64,000 bases of DNA from Dehalococcoidia bacterium (lineage in GTDB: Bacteria; Chloroflexota; Dehalococcoidia; GIF9; AB-539-J10): assembly GCA_021157895.1 (NCBI GenBank), contig JAGGVQ010000010.1, forward strand, positions 3,394 through 67,393. Direction: 5' to 3'. This document shows positions 4,867 to 59,308 of this stretch, in pieces. Within the stretch, counting starts at the first letter, position 1; each line of letters begins with the position of its first letter. The position numbers and the translations under genes are program-made. Below the pieces are notes generated by a model that was not told where the DNA came from, did no database searches, and saw only the letters and a list, made by a program, of their open reading frames with translations.

Positions 4867-4983
4867 TCTGGTGACTGTAGCGGAGTGGAACCACCCGTTC
4901 CCATCCCGAACACGGCAGTGAAACTCTCCAGCGCAGACGATACTGAAGGGGCAACCCTCTGGGAAAATATGTCGTTGCCAGGA
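4867..4983 (+). rRNA. rrf: 5S ribosomal RNA, not linked to a 23S gene
   Basis: Contains the universal 5S core CCCGTTCCCATCCCGAACACGG. Terminal helix I pairs CTGGTGAC with GTTGCCAG. Length is about 117 nt. The upstream neighbour is a minus-strand protein gene. Confidence 0.9.
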
Positions 4984-29408: not shown

Positions 29409-30215
29409 ATGATAAAACACATAAAATATGTCTTTTCCCATCTAGAAGCTATGACCAGCAAAATTACAGGAGCGGGACACATCCTTTTGCTTTCCGACTA
29501 CGATGGTACGCTAACTCCAATTGTGGAGAAACCAGAGCTAGCTAGTCTATCTCACAAAATGATATCCTGCCTGTATTCGCTGTCCAATAACCCCAACATC
29601 ACGCTAGGTATCATCAGCGGCAGAAAACTGACAGACATTCGTAAAAAGGTAAACCTGAGTAACATTATCTACTCTGGAAACCATGGTCTGGAAATACAGG
29701 GGGCTGGTATCCAATTTGTATGTCCCACAGCCAACCATAGTAAACAACTATTACACTCACTATACCAACAGCTTGATAAAAGATTAACCACTATCAATGG
29801 TGCTAGGACAGAAGATAAGGAACTTTCGTTAACACTTCACTACCGTCTTGTACCCAAAGAAGAGTTGCCAACATTAGAACAAACTTTCCGGCAAATAACC
29901 GAACCTTATCTGACTTCGGGTAAAGTGATAGTTACATCAAGCAAAAAGGCCTACGAAATAAGACCAGTGGTAGATTGGAACAAGGGCAAGGCAATAACAT
30001 TTATAGCCCAAAATCTCTGGCCAGAAAAGAAACCTCTTATAATATTTCTCGGCGATGACGTCACCGACAATGATGGTTTTAATACTACCAATGATAACAA
30101 GGGGATATCCATTTATGTTGGTAAGAATCCCTCAGACACCATAGCTCAATATTTTCTGAGATCGACAGATGAGGTGTATCGATTCCTCAGTCTACTCCAT
30201 AGTATCCTTAACTAA
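29409..30215 (+). CDS. otsB: HAD-IIB sugar-phosphate phosphatase, trehalose-6-phosphate phosphatase-like
   Basis: Contains LLSDYDGTLTPIV, ISGR and GDDVTDNDGF. An alternative start at 29451 is possible. Confidence 0.7.
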   Translation: MIKHIKYVFSHLEAMTSKITGAGHILLLSDYDGTLTPIVEKPELASLSHKMISCLYSLSNNPNITLGIISGRKLTDIRKKVNLSNIIYSGNHGLEIQGAGIQFVCPTANHSKQLLHSLYQQLDKRLTTINGARTEDKELSLTLHYRLVPKEELPTLEQTFRQITEPYLTSGKVIVTSSKKAYEIRPVVDWNKGKAITFIAQNLWPEKKPLIIFLGDDVTDNDGFNTTNDNKGISIYVGKNPSDTIAQYFLRSTDEVYRFLSLLHSILN

Positions 30216-30802
30216 CCTTCTATAACTTCCTTGGTACTGGGTATCTCACCCGCCAGTCTCCTGTCAATTTGCACTGCCAAATCTAAAGCTCGGCCTAGCG
30301 CTTTAAATATAGCTTCAGCCTTATGGTGATCATTTATCCCACTAAGCACTTTAGCATGAAGATTAATCTTGGCTTCAGAAGCAAAGGAAACCAAAAAGTG
30401 ACGAACCATGTCAGCCTCTAAATTACTGATATTTGCCTGGCTAAAAGGTATATCTGTCACACTAAAAGATCTGCCCCCAATATCAACCACCACAATTACC
30501 AAAGCATCATCCATAGGCACAACAGAATGTGCCATTCGAACAATGCCTCTTTTATCTCCCAAGGCCTGATTGAAAGCTCTGCCCAAGGAAATAGCCACAT
30601 CTTCAACCACATGATGTTGATCAGGCCCCGTGGCAGACACTTTTAAATCAAACACACCGTGTTGTGCTAGCTGAGCTATAAGATGATCCAGCATCCTTAT
30701 ACCCGTAGTGACTTCAAACTGGCCACTACCATCAATGTTCAGCTCCACGTTTACATTGGTTTCTGCAGTTTCCCTGGTTACCGTCGCTGTTCTCTCTATC
30801 AT
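30212..30802 (-). CDS. hisB: imidazoleglycerol-phosphate dehydratase
   Basis: Contains RETAETNV, HHVVED and NDHHKAEAIFKA. Length is 196 aa. Confidence 0.9.
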   Translation of the reverse strand: MIERTATVTRETAETNVNVELNIDGSGQFEVTTGIRMLDHLIAQLAQHGVFDLKVSATGPDQHHVVEDVAISLGRAFNQALGDKRGIVRMAHSVVPMDDALVIVVVDIGGRSFSVTDIPFSQANISNLEADMVRHFLVSFASEAKINLHAKVLSGINDHHKAEAIFKALGRALDLAVQIDRRLAGEIPSTKEVIEG

Positions 30803-31899
30803 GTTCGATTCCTCCTATATTCCGCTCTCAGCGCCTCTATGACTGCATCAGTATCATCAGAATTCCCCACGCTGATTCGCAGATAGTCTTTCAATCTAGG
30901 ATTATCAAAATAGCGTATGGCGATACCCCTTTGTTGTAAGCGCAGCCAGATATCCCTTGCTTGTTGCCCCGGCAGCACCAAACAAAGAACAAAATTTGCA
31001 CTTGAAGGATACGGTTTTAACCATCCCAATCCCTCTAGCTTATCAAACAAGCGGGACCTCTCAGTGGTTATTTTCTGCACATTGGCAGTAAGATAATCAA
31101 TATCACGCAACGAGGCCAACACTGCTACCTTTGCGGCAGAATTAACATTATAGGGCTGTTTGATCTTCATAAGGTAATCAGCAACCTCAGGTGAGGAAAT
31201 GCTATATCCTACTCTTAACCCGGCCAGGCCAGCCCACTTACTGAAAGTCCGTAATACTATTAGATTGGAATAAGAGTGTACTAAATTGGCTACAGTCACA
31301 CGGCTAAATTCAAAATATGCCTCATCTACTACCACAATTTTTCCTACATTGAGAATTTCTACCAACTCCTGTTCACTGATAAGATTGCCCGTCGGGTTAT
31401 TGGGCGAAGCAACAAACAAAACTTTCCCTTTATTCTTCAATACCCTCACCACATTGGGAACATCAAGAACAAACTGGCTATCTCTATCTATGTTAATCAC
31501 CTTAGCTCCACAAATCTCGGCACTAAAGGGATACATACCAAATGTTGGTGGACAATTAATAACCTCATCCCCAGGCCCAACAAACAGTCTGACCACAAGA
31601 TCGATGAGGTCATCACTACCACTGCCACAAACAATATACTTGGTATCAAACCCCACATACTGTGCCAGTGCCTGCCTCAAATCTCTTTGTTCAGGATCAG
31701 GATATATATGATAATCGGAATAACAAGTCAGAGCTGCATAAACCTCAGGTGAGCAGCCATATGGATTCTCATTACCATCGAGTTTTACGACGCGATCCAG
31801 TGGCAACTCAACTCGCCGGCTCAAGACATCTACAGGTTCAATAGGAGTGTAGCTTTTCATAGATAGTAGATCAGGCCTCACTAAATCTTTTATTTTCAT
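30799..31899 (-). CDS. hisC: histidinol-phosphate aminotransferase
   Basis: A class II aminotransferase with LDGNENPYG, SPNNPTG and RTFSKWAGLAGLRVGY. Length is 366 aa. Confidence 0.9.
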   Translation of the reverse strand: MKIKDLVRPDLLSMKSYTPIEPVDVLSRRVELPLDRVVKLDGNENPYGCSPEVYAALTCYSDYHIYPDPEQRDLRQALAQYVGFDTKYIVCGSGSDDLIDLVVRLFVGPGDEVINCPPTFGMYPFSAEICGAKVINIDRDSQFVLDVPNVVRVLKNKGKVLFVASPNNPTGNLISEQELVEILNVGKIVVVDEAYFEFSRVTVANLVHSYSNLIVLRTFSKWAGLAGLRVGYSISSPEVADYLMKIKQPYNVNSAAKVAVLASLRDIDYLTANVQKITTERSRLFDKLEGLGWLKPYPSSANFVLCLVLPGQQARDIWLRLQQRGIAIRYFDNPRLKDYLRISVGNSDDTDAVIEALRAEYRRNRT

Positions 31900-33221
31900 C
31901 TCTGCATACCTAGCCTAATTTCAATAGCTTTGGCATGAGCATCCAGCCCTTCAGCTTTAGCTATCGTCACAGCTGCCTGCCCCAGTACTCGCATAGCAGT
32001 CTTATTCAGATTAACGACATTGGTTACCTTGAGGAAATCTTGAACTCCTAAAGGGGAAGCAAAACGAGCGCTACCTCCTGTCGGTAACACGTGGGATGGT
32101 CCAGCCACATAATCACCCAAGACCTCAGGCGAGTTCTCTCCAGAGAAAATACAGCCAGCATTTCGAATTTTTCTACTCAGAGACAGTGCATCTACTACCA
32201 GAAGAGAAAGATGCTCAGGGGCATGAATATTCACCAGTTCAGCTGCCTCATCCAAGTTGTTAACGATTATCATCATGCCTCGGTCCATGGCTGCACTGGC
32301 AATACTACATCTCGTTAATTTCTGTAGCTGGATCTCAATTTGTTTGGTCACCTGATCAGCAAGTTCCAACGATGTTGTGATACAAATTACTGCTGCTGTA
32401 GGATCATGTTCTGCTTGAGCAAGCAGGTCAGCAGCACAAAAAGAAGCTTCGGCAGTATTATCAGCTACGACGACAAGCTCAGTGGGCCCCTGGAGCCCAT
32501 CAACAGCAACTGAGCCATAAACCATCTTCTTGGCCAGAGTCACAAAAATATTCCCTGGGCCACAAATTTTATCTACCCTAGGGACAGACTGGGTGCCAAA
32601 AGCTAAGCTGGCGATTGCCTGAGCTCCTCCTGCTTTAAAAACACGATCAACTCCAGCAATACCAGCTGCTGCTAATGTAGGAGCTGCAATACTACCATCC
32701 TTGGATGGTGGTGATACCATGACAATTTCCCCCACACCCGCCACCTTCGCAGGTATCGCGGTCATAAGAACTGAAGATGGATAAGCAGCGGTACCACCTG
32801 GGACATAGATTCCTATTTTCTCTAAGGGAGATATCTGCTGCCCCAAACCTTGCCCAATGGTATAAAAACCAGCTCTGGGATTACAACTGCGATGAAAATC
32901 ACGTATTCTCTGAGCTGCCAATTCCAGCGCAGAGATCAGCTTTTCATCTACAACATTATAAGATCCAGCTATACTTTGCCTAGTTACCTCAAGAGAATCA
33001 ATACTAATGCCATCTATCCTGTAAGTATAATCACGTATAGCTTGATCCCCATGAAGGCGAACATCTGCTATAATCTGATCAACGGCATCCTGCAGTGACA
33101 AATCTTTACCAAAGATTTCCTTAATCCGTGCCCTCATCAAAGGTGAGGCAACAACAGTCTCCCAGAAACTATCTCTGTTCAGTAGTTGTTTTGCCCTACT
33201 GAAATCTGTAATCCGAATCAC
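31896..33221 (-). CDS. hisD: histidinol dehydrogenase
   Basis: Contains IYVPGGTAAYPSSVLM, AGPTELVV, AQAEHD and APEHL. Length is 441 aa. Confidence 0.95.
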   Translation of the reverse strand: MIRITDFSRAKQLLNRDSFWETVVASPLMRARIKEIFGKDLSLQDAVDQIIADVRLHGDQAIRDYTYRIDGISIDSLEVTRQSIAGSYNVVDEKLISALELAAQRIRDFHRSCNPRAGFYTIGQGLGQQISPLEKIGIYVPGGTAAYPSSVLMTAIPAKVAGVGEIVMVSPPSKDGSIAAPTLAAAGIAGVDRVFKAGGAQAIASLAFGTQSVPRVDKICGPGNIFVTLAKKMVYGSVAVDGLQGPTELVVVADNTAEASFCAADLLAQAEHDPTAAVICITTSLELADQVTKQIEIQLQKLTRCSIASAAMDRGMMIIVNNLDEAAELVNIHAPEHLSLLVVDALSLSRKIRNAGCIFSGENSPEVLGDYVAGPSHVLPTGGSARFASPLGVQDFLKVTNVVNLNKTAMRVLGQAAVTIAKAEGLDAHAKAIEIRLGMQR

Positions 33222-34639
33222 GCTACTGCTTTTTCCAGCCTCCGTATAATAAAGTTGATATTTTTCATCTTGTCACGGGAAGCAAACCCTTGCGTATTCC
33301 CAATCAAACAAGCTTGAGATTGAAAAAGTATATCTATTACTTTCAGATTTTGCTTGATCAGTGTACGTCCTGTCTGAACATTATCAATTAGCAAATCGGC
33401 ATCTTCCGGAGGAAATACCTCGCTGGCTCCCCAAGTCAATATTAACTTATAACAACCAATATGCTGATCTTGCAGATACCGATCAGCAATATTGATATAC
33501 TCCGAGGCTACCCGCAAACAGGGATATGCTCCATTTTGGATATACCTCCTCAGTTGTGCAATATTAGCAACAGGAACTTCTGTATTTACCGCTGCTACAA
33601 TTTTAACTTGTCCGAATCCTAGATCTAACAATTTCTTTACGGGACTTGCTGGAAAGCGATAAATATGCTCTCGAAACCAGTCCTCACCTGTTATAGCCAG
33701 GTCAAAATTACCATTGGCTACCTGAAGAGGCATATCCTGAGGCCTAATAACTTTGATACTTGCCCAATCTAGATTAATTCCCGGACGAGAACACACCTCC
33801 ACTGTAGAATATCCCTGCAACTCCAATCCTGCTTGCTTTAGAACTCGTGCGGTTGGGACTTGCTGATGACCATCAGGCAAAGCTACCCTGACATCTTGCT
33901 CACCCCGTTGGAAATGGAAGATAGCTGGTTGAGCTTGCGTCATCGTCCTCTGTCGTCTCAGAATTCTGGAACTCTCTACTCGCCTAGAAGCAAAACGGCT
34001 GAGTATCTGGTGCAAACCTCTATTTTCCAAACTTTCTCTGTTGGCAATGAGACAGGCAGTAACAGGAAATAATTTCCTCAGGCAAACAAAACCTCGAGAG
34101 ACAAGTTCCTGTTCATGAACTATCTTCAGTACAGCTAATTCGGCATCTTCAGGAAGATAAACCTCGGCGCTCCCCCACACAGGGAAAACTTTGAAATCCC
34201 TCAACCTCAAGTTCAAGGCAAAGGCCTCGGCCAAATTGGGGTACTCACTTACTATCCTCCACTCCCTTCTTTCTTTACCTATTACATAGATGTCAGGTAT
34301 ATTGCTGTGCCTGTGACTTACGAGACATATTTCGCTCTTGCCATAATTTAAATTTAATATCTTTACCAGAGAACTGGATAAATACCTTGCTAGAAGTTCC
34401 TCAACCCAATCTGCACCACATATGCCCAAGTCATAATTACCTATAGCAACCTGTATAGGAATATCCTTCTCCTGAAAGATCTTCGCTGTGATATATGAAA
34501 ACTCTGTTGAGTGAAGTCGATATCGCCGAGCATCAGAGCTATATCCCTCCACACCCAAAGTTAACTCATTGAGCAATCTGGATGTGGGCGATAAGAGAGT
34601 CCCCTTGGGTAAAGCAAGTCTGATTAACCCTGTAGACAT
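33218..34639 (-). CDS. hisG: ATP phosphoribosyltransferase, tandem fusion of two short-form HisG modules
   Basis: Residues about 1-215 (IRLALPKG..., DIPIQVAIGNYDLGICGADW) and about 250-473 (VRVALPDG..., DMPLQVANGNFDLAITGEDW, GASEVFPPEDADLLIDNVQTGRTL) are each a complete HisG-S-like module in one uninterrupted 473-aa ORF. Confidence 0.85.
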   Translation of the reverse strand: MSTGLIRLALPKGTLLSPTSRLLNELTLGVEGYSSDARRYRLHSTEFSYITAKIFQEKDIPIQVAIGNYDLGICGADWVEELLARYLSSSLVKILNLNYGKSEICLVSHRHSNIPDIYVIGKERREWRIVSEYPNLAEAFALNLRLRDFKVFPVWGSAEVYLPEDAELAVLKIVHEQELVSRGFVCLRKLFPVTACLIANRESLENRGLHQILSRFASRRVESSRILRRQRTMTQAQPAIFHFQRGEQDVRVALPDGHQQVPTARVLKQAGLELQGYSTVEVCSRPGINLDWASIKVIRPQDMPLQVANGNFDLAITGEDWFREHIYRFPASPVKKLLDLGFGQVKIVAAVNTEVPVANIAQLRRYIQNGAYPCLRVASEYINIADRYLQDQHIGCYKLILTWGASEVFPPEDADLLIDNVQTGRTLIKQNLKVIDILFQSQACLIGNTQGFASRDKMKNINFIIRRLEKAVA

Positions 34640-36014: not shown

Positions 36015-37328
36015 ATGCGCAACAAGTTGTTCAGATTATTCATACTTGCATTATTTCTGCTCCCGATCACTGCCAGTTTGGTCAATAGCAGCGTCAGTGC
36101 TTCCAATCCTTCCGTGTCTGTACTCCAAGTGAAAGGTACCATCGTACCTGTAGTAGCTGATTATATTAATCGAGGGATAAATGAGGCTGAAGATAACGGT
36201 GATAGTGTATGCATCATCGAGCTAAATACACCTGGGGGACTCCTCGGTTCCACGGAACGAATAGTACAAACCATCTTCAATGCCAACATTCCCATAGTAG
36301 TATATGTTTCTCCTAAAGGAGCCTGGGCAGCATCGGCGGGAACCTTCATCACCCTATCAGCTCACATAGCAGCAATGACACCAGGTACTACCATTGGGGC
36401 AGCTCACCCCGTCAGCGGCAGTGGAGAGGCTATTCCAGAGGATGAAATGAAAAAAATAACTGAGTTCTCTGCTAAATGGATAGGTACTATCGCTGAGGAT
36501 CGTGGCCGCAACCGTGAAGAGGCAGAAAAGGCAGTAACCGAAAGTAAATCATTCACTGATACTGACGCCCTGAAAAGCAATCTGATTGACCTCAGAGCCG
36601 ATAATTTGGATGATCTCCTTAACAAAATCGATGGTATGAGAGTCATGGTAAACGGTCAAGAAATCACTATTGATACCACAGGATATAGTGAACCTGTTAG
36701 AAATAACATGAGTGAAATTGAACGCTTCCTACTAACCATTAGCGATCCCAACATCGCTTACCTATTATTCACCCTGGCTACCATAGGCCTGATCACTGAA
36801 GTTTCCAACCCTGGAATGATCTTCCCGGGAGTAGTAGGTGGTATTAGCCTACTACTGGCGTTCTATTCTCTGGGTGTACTAAACGCATACTGGGGGGGGC
36901 TCTTACTCCTATTCCTTGGCGTAGGGTTGCTAGTAGCCGAGATCCTTACCCCCACCTTTGGCCTATTGACAGCAGGAGGGGTAACCTCTTTGGTTATCGG
37001 ATCGCTGATCCTGTTTAGCCATAGTCCGGGAATAGTGATTAACCGAGGCCTTATCGCCGGAGTAGCAATTCTAATCACTGCCTTTGCCGTATTTGTAATC
37101 GGCGCCATAGTGCATAGCCAGAAACGCCGAAAGGCCACTGGACCTGAAGGAATGTTAGGCAAGACAGCTGTAGCAAAAACACCACTTGTCCCGACAGGCA
37201 CTGTCTTGGCTGAAGGAGAACTGTGGACAGCTGTAGCTGAAAAGGAAAGCATCAAACCAGGAGAAGAAGTCATAATAACTAAGGTAGAACAACTAAAACT
37301 TTCAGTCACCAAGAAAAACATCGACTGA
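36015..37328 (+). CDS. NfeD-family membrane-bound ClpP-class serine protease (long form)
   Basis: It has a signal/TM segment, a ClpP-like domain (IELNTPGGLL, WAASAGTFI), several TM helices and a C-terminal OB-fold NfeD domain (GTVLAEGELWTA). Length is 437 aa. Confidence 0.85.
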   Translation: MRNKLFRLFILALFLLPITASLVNSSVSASNPSVSVLQVKGTIVPVVADYINRGINEAEDNGDSVCIIELNTPGGLLGSTERIVQTIFNANIPIVVYVSPKGAWAASAGTFITLSAHIAAMTPGTTIGAAHPVSGSGEAIPEDEMKKITEFSAKWIGTIAEDRGRNREEAEKAVTESKSFTDTDALKSNLIDLRADNLDDLLNKIDGMRVMVNGQEITIDTTGYSEPVRNNMSEIERFLLTISDPNIAYLLFTLATIGLITEVSNPGMIFPGVVGGISLLLAFYSLGVLNAYWGGLLLLFLGVGLLVAEILTPTFGLLTAGGVTSLVIGSLILFSHSPGIVINRGLIAGVAILITAFAVFVIGAIVHSQKRRKATGPEGMLGKTAVAKTPLVPTGTVLAEGELWTAVAEKESIKPGEEVIITKVEQLKLSVTKKNID

Positions 37329-37641
37329 GAAGGAGGCAGGCTTGCCATTTATGGAAGGAATAAGTCCTGGACTAATTGTAGGTATCATTATCGTCTCCCT
37401 TGCTTTTATCATTTTTGTTATTCTGGCTGTTATCCGAGGGCAGAAACGAAAGTTGACTGCTGGAGCGGAGACAATGATAGGCAAGACAGTTGTAGCACAA
37501 ACCCCTCTCAACCCCAAGGGCACTGTTCTGGCTGAAGGGGAATTGTGGACGGCTATAAGTAAAGATGGTAATATGGAAATTGGTGATGAGGCAACAATAA
37601 TCAAAATAGAAGGGTTACAACTGCTGGTAGCCCAAAAAACA
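37045..37641 (+). repeat. tandem duplication (period 322 bp) of the TM plus OB-fold NfeD C-terminal module
   Basis: Segments about 37045-37319 and 37367-37641 align at nucleotide level, sharing runs such as ggcaagacag, ggctgaagg and tgtggac. They also align at protein level (GKTAVAKTPLVPTGTVLAEGELWTAV versus GKTVVAQTPLNPKGTVLAEGELWTAI). Confidence 0.6.
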
Positions 37642-37662
37642 GGAGAGGAGAAAGAAAAATGA
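37342..37662 (+). CDS. short NfeD-like protein (one TM helix plus OB-fold domain), paralog of the upstream gene's C-terminus
   Basis: A TTG start sits 5 nt after AGGAGG. The 106-aa product has a TM helix and then an NfeD OB domain, and its end overlaps the start of the SPFH gene. Confidence 0.65.
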   Translation: MPFMEGISPGLIVGIIIVSLAFIIFVILAVIRGQKRKLTAGAETMIGKTVVAQTPLNPKGTVLAEGELWTAISKDGNMEIGDEATIIKIEGLQLLVAQKTGEEKEK

Positions 37663-38441
37663 TGAGCTGGTTCGTTTATCTAGTTATTGCTGTAATAGTA
37701 GTGATGCTTCTATCAGCAGCTATTAAAATTGTTCAAGAATATGAGCGGGGAGCAGTGTTCCGACTAGGCAGATTTGTCGGTTTAAGAGGACCAGGGCTGG
37801 TCATAATTATACCCTTTATTGAACGCATGTGGAAGGTTGACCTGCGGGTAGTTACTATGGACGTCCCTGACCAAGAATGTATAACAGTAGATAATGTCAC
37901 AGTTACAGTGGATGCTGTGGTTTACTTCAGAGTGGTTGATGCTGCTGATGCCGTACTTAAGGTAGCTGACTTCTCGAGAGCAACTTATTTGCTAGCCCAG
38001 ACGACTTTAAGAAACGTTGTCGGACAATCTGAATTAGATGAGTTGTTAGCCCATCGCGATCGCCTTAACGAAAAGATTCAGACAGCTGTTGATGAAGGTA
38101 CTAATCCCTGGGGAATAAAGGTGAGCATGGTAGAGGTAAAAGATGTTCAATTACCTGAGACGATGCAAAGAGCAATGGCAGCCCAGGCAGAGGCTGAGCG
38201 CGACAGAAGGGCCAAGGTAGTGCATGCCGAGGGCGAATTCCAAGCAGCAGAGAAACTGGCCAAAGCTGCCCATATTATATCGCGCGACCCTGCAGCCCTA
38301 CAGCTACGCTATTTACAAACCTTGGCTGGAATCGCCACGGAGAGAACCAACACCATACTCTTTCCTCTACCAATAGACATGATGACGGCTTTCATGCAAC
38401 GAGGAAAAGCAACTGATAACAAACAGCTGCCCCAACAATGA
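37659..38441 (+). CDS. SPFH/band-7 (stomatin-like) protein
   Basis: It has an N-terminal TM helix, IVQEYERGAVFRLGR, a PHB domain, and a coiled-coil AAQAEAERDRRAK. Confidence 0.9.
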   Translation: MMSWFVYLVIAVIVVMLLSAAIKIVQEYERGAVFRLGRFVGLRGPGLVIIIPFIERMWKVDLRVVTMDVPDQECITVDNVTVTVDAVVYFRVVDAADAVLKVADFSRATYLLAQTTLRNVVGQSELDELLAHRDRLNEKIQTAVDEGTNPWGIKVSMVEVKDVQLPETMQRAMAAQAEAERDRRAKVVHAEGEFQAAEKLAKAAHIISRDPAALQLRYLQTLAGIATERTNTILFPLPIDMMTAFMQRGKATDNKQLPQQ

Positions 38442-59218: not shown

Positions 59219-59308
59219 GGAGGGGTGACCGAGTGGCTTATGGTGACGGTCTTGAAAACCGTTTTCGTTGTATGACGAACGTGGGTTCAAATCCCACCCC
59301 CTCCGCCA
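59219..59308 (+). tRNA. tRNA-Ser (anticodon UGA), CCA encoded
   Basis: The acceptor GGAGGGG pairs with CCCCTCC. It has the anticodon loop CTTGAAA, a long variable arm (TTTCGTTGTATGACGAACG), the T-arm GTGGGTTCAAATCCCAC, discriminator G and a terminal CCA. Confidence 0.9.

Follow-up and report, generated by a model that had tools for sequence, protein, structure and literature searches.

A tandem hisG gene of Dehalococcoidia: apparent fusion of two old HisG paralogues and a putative ATP phosphoribosyltransferase with a single active site per pair

What kind of enzyme is encoded by a hisG gene that contains the HisG core twice, with the loop binding phosphoribosyl pyrophosphate (PRPP) retained in only one of the two copies? 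This question is raised by a locus in the genome of a Dehalococcoidia bacterium (lineage GIF9; AB-539-J10; assembly GCA_021157895.1), which we analyzed within a stretch of 64,000 nucleotides of contig JAGGVQ010000010.1 (positions 3,394–67,393; hereafter, the window). The gene in question encodes a protein of 473 amino acids (aa), referred to below as tandem HisG, in which an N-terminal module 1 and a C-terminal module 2 are joined by a linker. Judging by sequence comparison, the gene is a fusion of two old and distinct HisG paralogues, G1 and G2, which elsewhere are encoded by separate adjacent genes.

A preliminary description of the window had proposed, at positions 33218–34639, one uninterrupted open reading frame (ORF) with two complete halves similar to the short form of HisG. 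The coordinates are correct, and the strand had to be changed to minus: there the interval is read as 473 codons without an internal stop, whereas the plus strand contains many stops and yields no ORF, so that this reading was rejected. All peptides quoted in that description were found in the translation. The Pfam scan matched the HisG family (PF01634) to the protein with 205 bits (cut-off 25.5) in two separate stretches, and the NCBIfam equivalog TIGR00070 gave 227.9 bits (cut-off 75.75), again in two stretches. When the first 237 aa are aligned with the last 236 aa, the identity is 30% over 224 positions (E = 8e-37), and either half, taken singly, matches solved HisG structures in the PDB. 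Hence, both halves are indeed HisG-like. With regard to the PRPP loop, the tandem protein belongs to the HisG family through module 2 only. The C-terminal domain HisG_C (PF08029) was not observed in the 473-aa protein, PF01634 being the only family returned; the same scan does detect HisG_C in an unrelated one-chain fusion (P0268, 777 aa) that combines His_biosynth (HisA/F-like), PRA-CH, PRA-PH, HisG, and HisG_C domains.

The structure of the fusion was predicted with AlphaFold2 from 120 homologues. The model contains two predicted HisG folds with the same strand/helix pattern and a disordered segment between them (residues 221–247, predicted local distance difference test score, pLDDT, below 50). 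At the site of the lost PRPP loop, module 1 is predicted to retain the strand–loop–helix topology. A Foldseek comparison with the PDB returned HisG catalytic cores as all top matches, with E-values down to 7e-19 and target template modeling scores (TM-scores) up to 0.88, each match covering one module.

The linker is variable. In the window protein, it is about 30 aa long and Arg-rich, and it joins the modules as had been described. Across the family, it comprises 35–72 aa, is rich in S, E, and K, has no conserved sequence, and remains in frame throughout; the notion of a conserved basic linker was rejected, since it is basic in the window protein only. An internal start at M233 was also considered as a relic of a G2 start: the sequence AGGA stands merely 2–3 nt before the ATG, and a Met is present in the linker of 57 of the 120 homologues. 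An unusual linker was observed in the 569-aa tandem HisG of MAG UBA2162 (MAG, metagenome-assembled genome; contig DCWM01000015, L033:5998-7707), where it contains an R3H domain (PF01424, 60.5 bits, aa 246–304). Module 2 of this protein also carries an insertion of short 'GNGTI(S/L)SSG' repeats. R3H is a domain that binds single-stranded nucleic acids and here lies within an enzyme of the histidine pathway.

Could the single ORF be an artefact, that is, either a duplication made by the assembly or a pair of genes run together through a sequencing frameshift or the loss of a stop codon? A split two-gene form is real in other lineages, and in one related MAG (MFD05942, L035:6067-7501) a frameshift in module 2 divides tandem hisG into ORFs of 277 and 202 aa; this break probably stems from a sequencing error rather than from a true split of the gene. 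A duplication made by assembly is nevertheless impossible, as the halves are just 30% identical. Further, the junction at 33896–33988 is spanned, without an indel or a joint, by Logan contigs assembled independently from four public runs of hydrothermal-vent and marine-sediment metagenomes, so that the assembly check proposed in the preliminary description came out in favor of the gene. The same uninterrupted ORF is present in the nearest related locus, a MAG with 96% amino-acid identity, and the linker is always in frame in more than 120 independent full-length homologues. The probability that an artefact explains the ORF is thus negligible, and we are nearly certain that the tandem gene is real and conserved. 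A search of RNA runs for its expression returned no run.

These homologues, of approximately 475 aa and 55–60% identity, were identified by a protein database search; where they are named at all, they are called merely 'ATP phosphoribosyltransferase' and originate from Dehalococcoidia MAGs. A scan of one genome per species revealed 39 loci with the tandem architecture, all of them in MAGs of Dehalococcoidia/Chloroflexota, so that the survey of related genomes suggested earlier showed the fusion to be shared. In an exhaustive search of cluster representatives, tandem proteins were found down to 33% identity; one tandem cluster is named Chloroflexi/Dehalococcoidia and is present also in Tara samples. 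A profile built from stand-alone G1 proteins recovers mostly tandem proteins, the named ones belonging to Chloroflexota/Dehalococcoidia, plus one with a 'Bathyarchaeota' MAG label. Proteins of about 420 aa, initially a candidate shorter class, proved to be of the tandem type with N-terminally truncated gene calls.

Within this family, the window protein belongs to a sublineage that has diverged: it shares about 57% identity with all homologues other than its one close relative (96%). It has T14, K101, S102, L162, K172, S284, and P410 at positions where the 120 closest homologues have near-invariant R/K14, E101, G102, P162, W172, R284, and L410.

The distribution of active-site residues between the modules is reciprocal. 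It was analyzed using the short-form HisG (HisGS) of Psychrobacter arcticus (PaHisGS) as the reference, the alignment numbering reproducing the published residues R32, R56, C115, E163, and D179. Column counts refer to 20 canonical HisG, 20 module 2, and 28 diverse module 1 sequences, and conservation within the close family to 120 sequences. The preliminary description had noted that the PRPP signature is present in the second half only and that the first half has LKIVHEQEL at the aligned position; both statements hold. The loop D-x-x-x-[ST]-G-x-T is present in module 2, while all four of its columns are replaced in module 1, which reads L171-K-I-V-H-E-Q-E-L. Specifically, the D176 column contains D in 19 canonical sequences, E or D (18 and 2) in module 2, and L, I, or V in module 1. 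The T180 column has T in 17 canonical and 19 module 2 sequences, and the G181 column has G in 19 and 20, respectively; in module 1 both are variable, the latter with E in nine sequences. Finally, the T183 column has T in 18 canonical sequences, T (17) or S (3) in module 2, and mainly E (11) or A (5) in module 1. In the close family, D413, D419, N420, T423, and G424 of module 2 are each invariant (120/120), and T426 is conserved in 119. Module 2 also keeps the G-A-S-E motif.

The opposite is observed at the R56 column, where Arg is found in 16 canonical and 27 module 1 sequences and in just two of module 2. In the close family, module 1 has K/R38 in 119, Y40 in 120, and R41 in 118 of 120 sequences, matching the canonical R-x-Y-R; moreover, Arg at the R56 column is invariant among 14 stand-alone G1 proteins. 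At the K30-G31-R32 columns, canonical HisG has K (13), G (20), and R (11), module 1 has K (18), G (27), and R (11), often with an acidic residue at the third position, and module 2 has D, G, and H in all 20 sequences. K12 of module 1 is invariant in the close family and position 14 is R/K in 119 of the 120, T14 being found in the window protein; in the wider G1 clade, the Arg32 column is variable or acidic.

One might suppose that module 1 is a decaying remnant, but this was rejected. In comparison with the 96%-identical MAG (L001), the ratio of nonsynonymous to synonymous substitution rates (dN/dS) amounts to 0.126 in module 1 and 0.109 in module 2; the linker has 0.385, a value based on few changes. 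Hence, both modules are under similar purifying selection, and the family alignment has 32 invariant columns in module 1.

The modules are not recent tandem copies of a single short-form gene. Modules 1 and 2 share, on average, 27% identity; with canonical HisG, the mean identity is 25% for module 1 and 29% for module 2; hence, the tandem is not a recent duplication. A neighbor-joining tree of 68 modules has three clades, namely module 1 (bootstrap 90/100), module 2 (73/100), and canonical HisG, and both module clades include fused as well as stand-alone sequences. A recent lineage-specific tandem duplication was therefore rejected, considering the deep separate clades, the identities of 27% vs. 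29%, and the existence of stand-alone G1 and G2 genes. Within both module clades, the fused and split forms interleave in parallel (the internal nodes were not bootstrapped), which suggests one old duplication followed by several events of fusion or fission.

The stand-alone forms were identified in the search of representatives as complete proteins of 213–248 aa that match either half 1 or half 2 alone. On contigs, the split arrangement is hisZ, followed by G1 (half-1-like, with no PRPP loop) and G2 (half-2-like, carrying P-D-G-H and the PRPP loop). The two genes overlap by 8 nt in four independent contigs and by 4 nt in another one; one further short contig also contains a G1–G2 pair. At locus L047, the two genes are separated by a spacer of 167 nt (2016–2182), and G2 is followed by a true hisS. 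This spacer is AT-rich and contains the short direct repeat AATCTGCGTAATCTGCGTAATCTGTGG. A protein of 637 aa (P0207) has a HisZ-like core (PF13393) and a module-1-type HisG in one ORF, with a low-complexity middle region of Arg and Pro; it may represent a gene call affected by a frameshift, on a high-GC contig, and not a true HisZ–G1 fusion.

A candidate for the partner expected of a short-form HisG is encoded next to the tandem gene. The preliminary description had pointed to an adjacent HisZ, and a HisZ-like gene is indeed located immediately upstream of tandem hisG, in the window as well as at 38 of the 39 related loci; for the exception, L003, the contig stops 228 bases before the gene. 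The product matches PF13393, the catalytic core of histidyl-tRNA synthetase (HisRS), with 195.9 bits, but falls under both equivalog cut-offs, that is, of TIGR00443 for HisZ (209.8 vs. 271.65) and TIGR00442 for hisS (219 vs. 286.75). The profile scans gave no match to an anticodon domain in this protein. Its motif-2 region, FAFE...GKENREKWQ, is degenerate, compared to FRRYQ...RGERPQKGRFREF in the true HisS of a related locus. The operon context and the degenerate motif 2, which is characteristic of aminoacyl-tRNA synthetases, favor HisZ over HisS. The gene order hisZ-hisGG-hisD-hisC-hisB is kept at all loci of the 39-member set where flanks exist, and no second hisG or hisS was found within the 64-kb window.

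How, then, might such a protein work? In the HisGS dimer, the subunits are arranged head-to-tail, with two active sites at the inter-subunit crevice, and two dimers sandwich a HisZ tetramer (PMC10795190). Arg56 of PaHisGS crosses the dimer interface to reach the pyrophosphate of PRPP in the partner subunit's active site; activity decreases 42-fold in the R56A mutant and, in the absence of HisZ, 25-fold in R32A. HisZ restores most of the lost activity, and the loss of Arg32, which acts in cis, is largely rescued (kcat 0.48 vs. 1.72 s-1) (PMC9734150). Since the PRPP loop is absent from module 1 and the trans-acting Arg from module 2, at most one canonical site per pair of modules is expected. 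The Arg lost from module 2 would have acted on the pocket of module 1, itself presumably dead, and such a pattern fits an obligate asymmetric dimer with a single composite site. The earlier proposal that one module is catalytic and the other structural or regulatory gains support, at the level of residues, from this reciprocity.

Based on these observations, the tandem chain would be a built-in heterodimer of two old HisG paralogues in a single polypeptide, acting as the ATP phosphoribosyltransferase (ATP-PRT) of its host. Module 2 would be the catalytic subunit holding the sole PRPP pocket, and module 1 a pseudo-subunit unable to bind PRPP in the canonical way. Two roles may be suggested for the latter. 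Firstly, it would be the second member of the head-to-tail dimer that no HisG catalytic core can do without; the two modules of a chain would pack against each other as in the HisGS dimer. Secondly, R38, the counterpart of Arg56, would be donated across the interface and stabilize the departing pyrophosphate at the site of the partner. Such a pair would have one active site instead of two. The HisZ-like protein, a dead paralogue of HisRS, would activate the tandem enzyme and mediate feedback by histidine, so that the enzyme would depend on it. The likely assembly would contain four HisZ and two tandem chains, in place of four HisZ and four HisGS. Overall, we consider it reasonably probable that the G1 and G2 modules constitute an obligate asymmetric, HisZ-dependent HisG pair with one composite active site, to which G2 contributes the pocket and G1 the trans-acting arginine.

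The residue pattern also bears on whether both modules might be active, with two sites per chain and with module 1 binding PRPP via a non-canonical loop. The strong conservation of module 1, including Glu159 and, in the close family, K12-G13-R14, would agree with this, but every PRPP-loop residue of module 1 is replaced, the G1 clade shows no conservation of this region, and a site in module 1 would need in trans an arginine that is missing from module 2. Two active sites per chain are, in our opinion, highly improbable.

A larger, though still low, probability is given to a mainly ligand-sensing module 1 that would tune module 2 allosterically, e.g., by binding ATP, AMP, ADP, phosphoribosyl-ATP (PRATP), pyrophosphate (PPi), or another metabolite in the altered pocket. 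Module 1 would then be more than an arginine-donating scaffold. This explanation is compatible with the asymmetric pair and could complement it. It agrees with the high conservation of the domain-I/cleft sequence (EKDIPIQVA.GNYDLGICG.DW, SEYPNLAE, WGAAE.YPPE), with the Glu163 column being kept in 21 of 28 module 1 sequences, with the motif L-W-[GA]-[KR]-[SN], conserved at the former PRPP loop in the close family, and with R/K14, which the close family also keeps. On the other hand, neither the replacement motif nor R14 is conserved in the wider G1 clade, and the window protein lacks both (LKIVH and T14); the known regulatory partner, HisZ, is still present and syntenic, and the sequence points to no particular ligand.

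As for the reaction, the operon position and the motifs suggest that the tandem protein catalyzes ATP + PRPP -> PRATP + PPi. Alternatively, it could have acquired a new activity or substrate and no longer be a standard ATP-PRT, the D-G-H of module 2 reflecting a changed nucleotide or leaving-group chemistry. Indeed, P-D-G-H is invariant (120/120 in the close family and 20/20 in the diverse set) where canonical proteins have P-K-G-R, and Arg32 matters in PaHisGS, as evidenced by the R32A mutant without HisZ. Yet this Arg is present in just 11 of the 20 nearest canonical HisG, and the effect of R32A is relieved by HisZ, which makes the replacement by H258 in module 2 plausible. Moreover, at all loci examined, the gene stands between hisZ and hisD in a conserved his operon, at the place of the first enzyme, and the window has no other hisG. 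Module 2 scores far over the TIGR00070 equivalog cut-off and has the canonical PRPP loop and the GASE motif. A change of activity thus seems very improbable.

Several observations weigh against the asymmetric one-site pair and should be considered together. The structural model is of limited confidence (mean pLDDT 77, predicted TM-score 0.57), and only one of the five models was confident, the others having pLDDT 47–55. The assignment of the trans-acting residue has an uncertainty of one to two residues, as phmmer aligns R39 with Arg56 and MAFFT aligns R38. In module 2, arginines conserved two to three residues farther downstream, R284/R285 (S284-R285 in the window protein), might substitute for the lost trans-acting Arg. 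The replacement of K-G-R in module 2 by an invariant D-G-H is a departure from the canonical site, and standard chemistry is not guaranteed. Finally, R/K at position 14, which corresponds to the cis-acting Arg32, is unexpected for a dead pocket when found in nearly all close-family module 1 sequences; together with L-W-[GA]-[KR]-[SN], it could indicate that some ligand is still bound in the former pocket. The weight of this objection is limited by the variability of the column in the wider G1 clade and by the T in the window protein.

More generally, the scale tips slightly toward regarding the G1/G2 pair as a third class of ATP-PRT, present as a fusion in most Dehalococcoidia and as two genes in some relatives, and characterized by reciprocal loss, by exactly one composite site per dimer, and by a retained HisZ partner. 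If this is true, the holoenzyme holds two different pseudoenzymes, HisZ and G1. The positions of the gene, its modules and motifs, and the neighboring his genes are listed in Table 1.

Table 1. Coordinates in the window of tandem hisG, its modules and putative functional motifs, and the adjacent his genes
Feature	Position	Strand	Basis or remark
Tandem hisG ORF (module 1 + linker + module 2), 473 aa + stop	33218..34639	-	ATG start, TGA stop; two HisG profile matches
Module 1 (aa 1-217), HisG-like without PRPP loop, G1 type, putative non-catalytic partner	33989..34639	-	Own match to HisG structures; module 1 clade bootstrap 90/100
P11-K12-G13-T14 of module 1, at the canonical P-K-G-R position (PaHisGS Arg32 column)	34598..34609	-	
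R38-R39-Y40-R41 of module 1, canonical R-x-Y-R; first basic residue aligned with trans-acting Arg56	34517..34528	-	
Module 1 aa 165-180 (DAELAVLKIVHEQELV), site of the PRPP loop, every phosphate-binding residue replaced	34100..34147	-	
Inter-module linker (about aa 218-248), predicted disordered, variable	33896..33988	-	pLDDT < 50; family variability
Module 2 (aa 249-473), HisG with intact PRPP loop, G2 type, putative catalytic module	33221..33895	-	Best Pfam/TIGRFAM stretch; nearest to canonical HisG
P255-D256-G257-H258 of module 2, replaces canonical P-K-G-R	33866..33877	-	Each residue 120/120
PRPP-binding loop of module 2, D413-A-D-L-L-I-D419-N-V-Q-T423-G424-R-T426-L427	33359..33403	-	Family conservation
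hisZ-like gene, 417 aa	34651..35904	-	PF13393; stop 11 nt before hisG start
hisD	31896..33221	-	GTG start overlaps hisG stop (GTGA)
hisC	30799-31899	-	Downstream of hisD
hisB	30212-30802	-	Downstream of hisC

The his operon of the window is flanked on both sides by genes of the opposite strand. Beside hisZ, a divergent operon at 36015–38441 (+) comprises genes for a membrane protease of the NfeD1b type (437 aa) and an SPFH/Band-7 protein (260 aa), as well as a short NfeD-like ORF (37342–37662). At the other end, a gene of the trehalose-phosphatase family (PF02358, 142 bits; 29409–30215, +) converges on hisB with an opposite-strand overlap of 4 nt. A 5S rRNA gene was found at 4867–4983 (+; 96.3 bits), no match to large-subunit rRNA being observed anywhere in the window, and tRNA genes are located at 278–351 and 59219–59305.

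Only two forms of HisG, the long and the short one, of 292 and 214 aa, are distinguished in a 2021 survey (PMC8305728). A search of the literature on tandem or duplicated HisG, hisG1/hisG2, HisG pseudoenzymes, and HisG of Dehalococcoidia or Chloroflexi yielded no description of the architecture, in line with the initial impression that it had not been described; yet it is abundant in databases under the name 'ATP phosphoribosyltransferase'. Tandem HisG is thus common in databases and apparently undescribed. A widespread third form would change the annotation and counting of hisG in Chloroflexota. It would also constitute a natural experiment on the roles of the trans-acting Arg56 and of Arg32 and on the repair of a damaged site by HisZ, for which engineered mutants of the Psychrobacter and Acinetobacter ATP-PRT have served so far: here, the arginine donor would have been separated by evolution from the owner of the PRPP pocket, and Arg32 is replaced by an invariant His; such an enzyme would offer a system with a single defined active site in each dimer.

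Among known systems, tandem HisG may be compared first with the hetero-octamer of short-form HisGS and HisZ, available from Psychrobacter arcticus (5M8H, 6FU2), Acinetobacter baumannii (8OY0), Lactococcus lactis (1Z7M), and Thermotoga maritima (1USY). As in HisGS, both modules are HisG cores of about 210 aa that lack the C-terminal regulatory domain, and a HisRS-like hisZ gene lies next to the tandem gene. The predicted fold matches with target TM-scores of 0.83–0.88, the PRPP loop and GASE are present in module 2, and R-x-Y-R with the putative trans-acting Arg is present in module 1. In contrast to the known enzymes, which are homodimers with two equivalent sites, the tandem consists of two diverged paralogues (mean identity 27%), fused or co-encoded, of which one has lost the PRPP loop and the other the trans-acting Arg, with P-D-G-H in place of P-K-G-R in module 2.

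The long form, HisGL, from E. coli (1H3D), M. tuberculosis (1NH7), and C. jejuni (4YB7), shares with tandem HisG the fold of the catalytic core, the PRPP loop, and a single polypeptide exceeding the short-form length. However, what HisGL has in addition is a histidine-binding domain at the C-terminus (PF08029), and it is a homohexamer that does not depend on HisZ, whereas the additional part of the tandem is a second, N-terminal HisG core, and hisZ is retained.

Heteromers of an enzyme with a pseudoenzyme partner derived by duplication are known from S-adenosylmethionine decarboxylase (AdoMetDC)/prozyme and deoxyhypusine synthase of trypanosomatids. The resemblance to heteromers of this type would consist in a dead paralogue kept under purifying selection as an obligate partner and in active-site elements shared across the interface. 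Unlike in these systems, the putatively dead and live HisG paralogues are often fused, and two pseudoenzymes, HisZ and G1, would be present.

Finally, elongations and fusions are well documented in the histidine pathway, namely the internal duplication of hisA/hisF, hisIE, hisNB, HIS4, and HIS7 (PMC7284861, PMC1963479); hisG is not among the cases discussed in these two surveys. In tandem HisG, paralogous modules of the pathway have likewise been duplicated, have diverged, and have been fused, and this protein would add to the pathway a case of duplication with reciprocal degeneration and repeated fusion or fission. It differs from the previously described cases in that the modules joined are not half-barrels but enzyme-sized units of the dimer-forming type.

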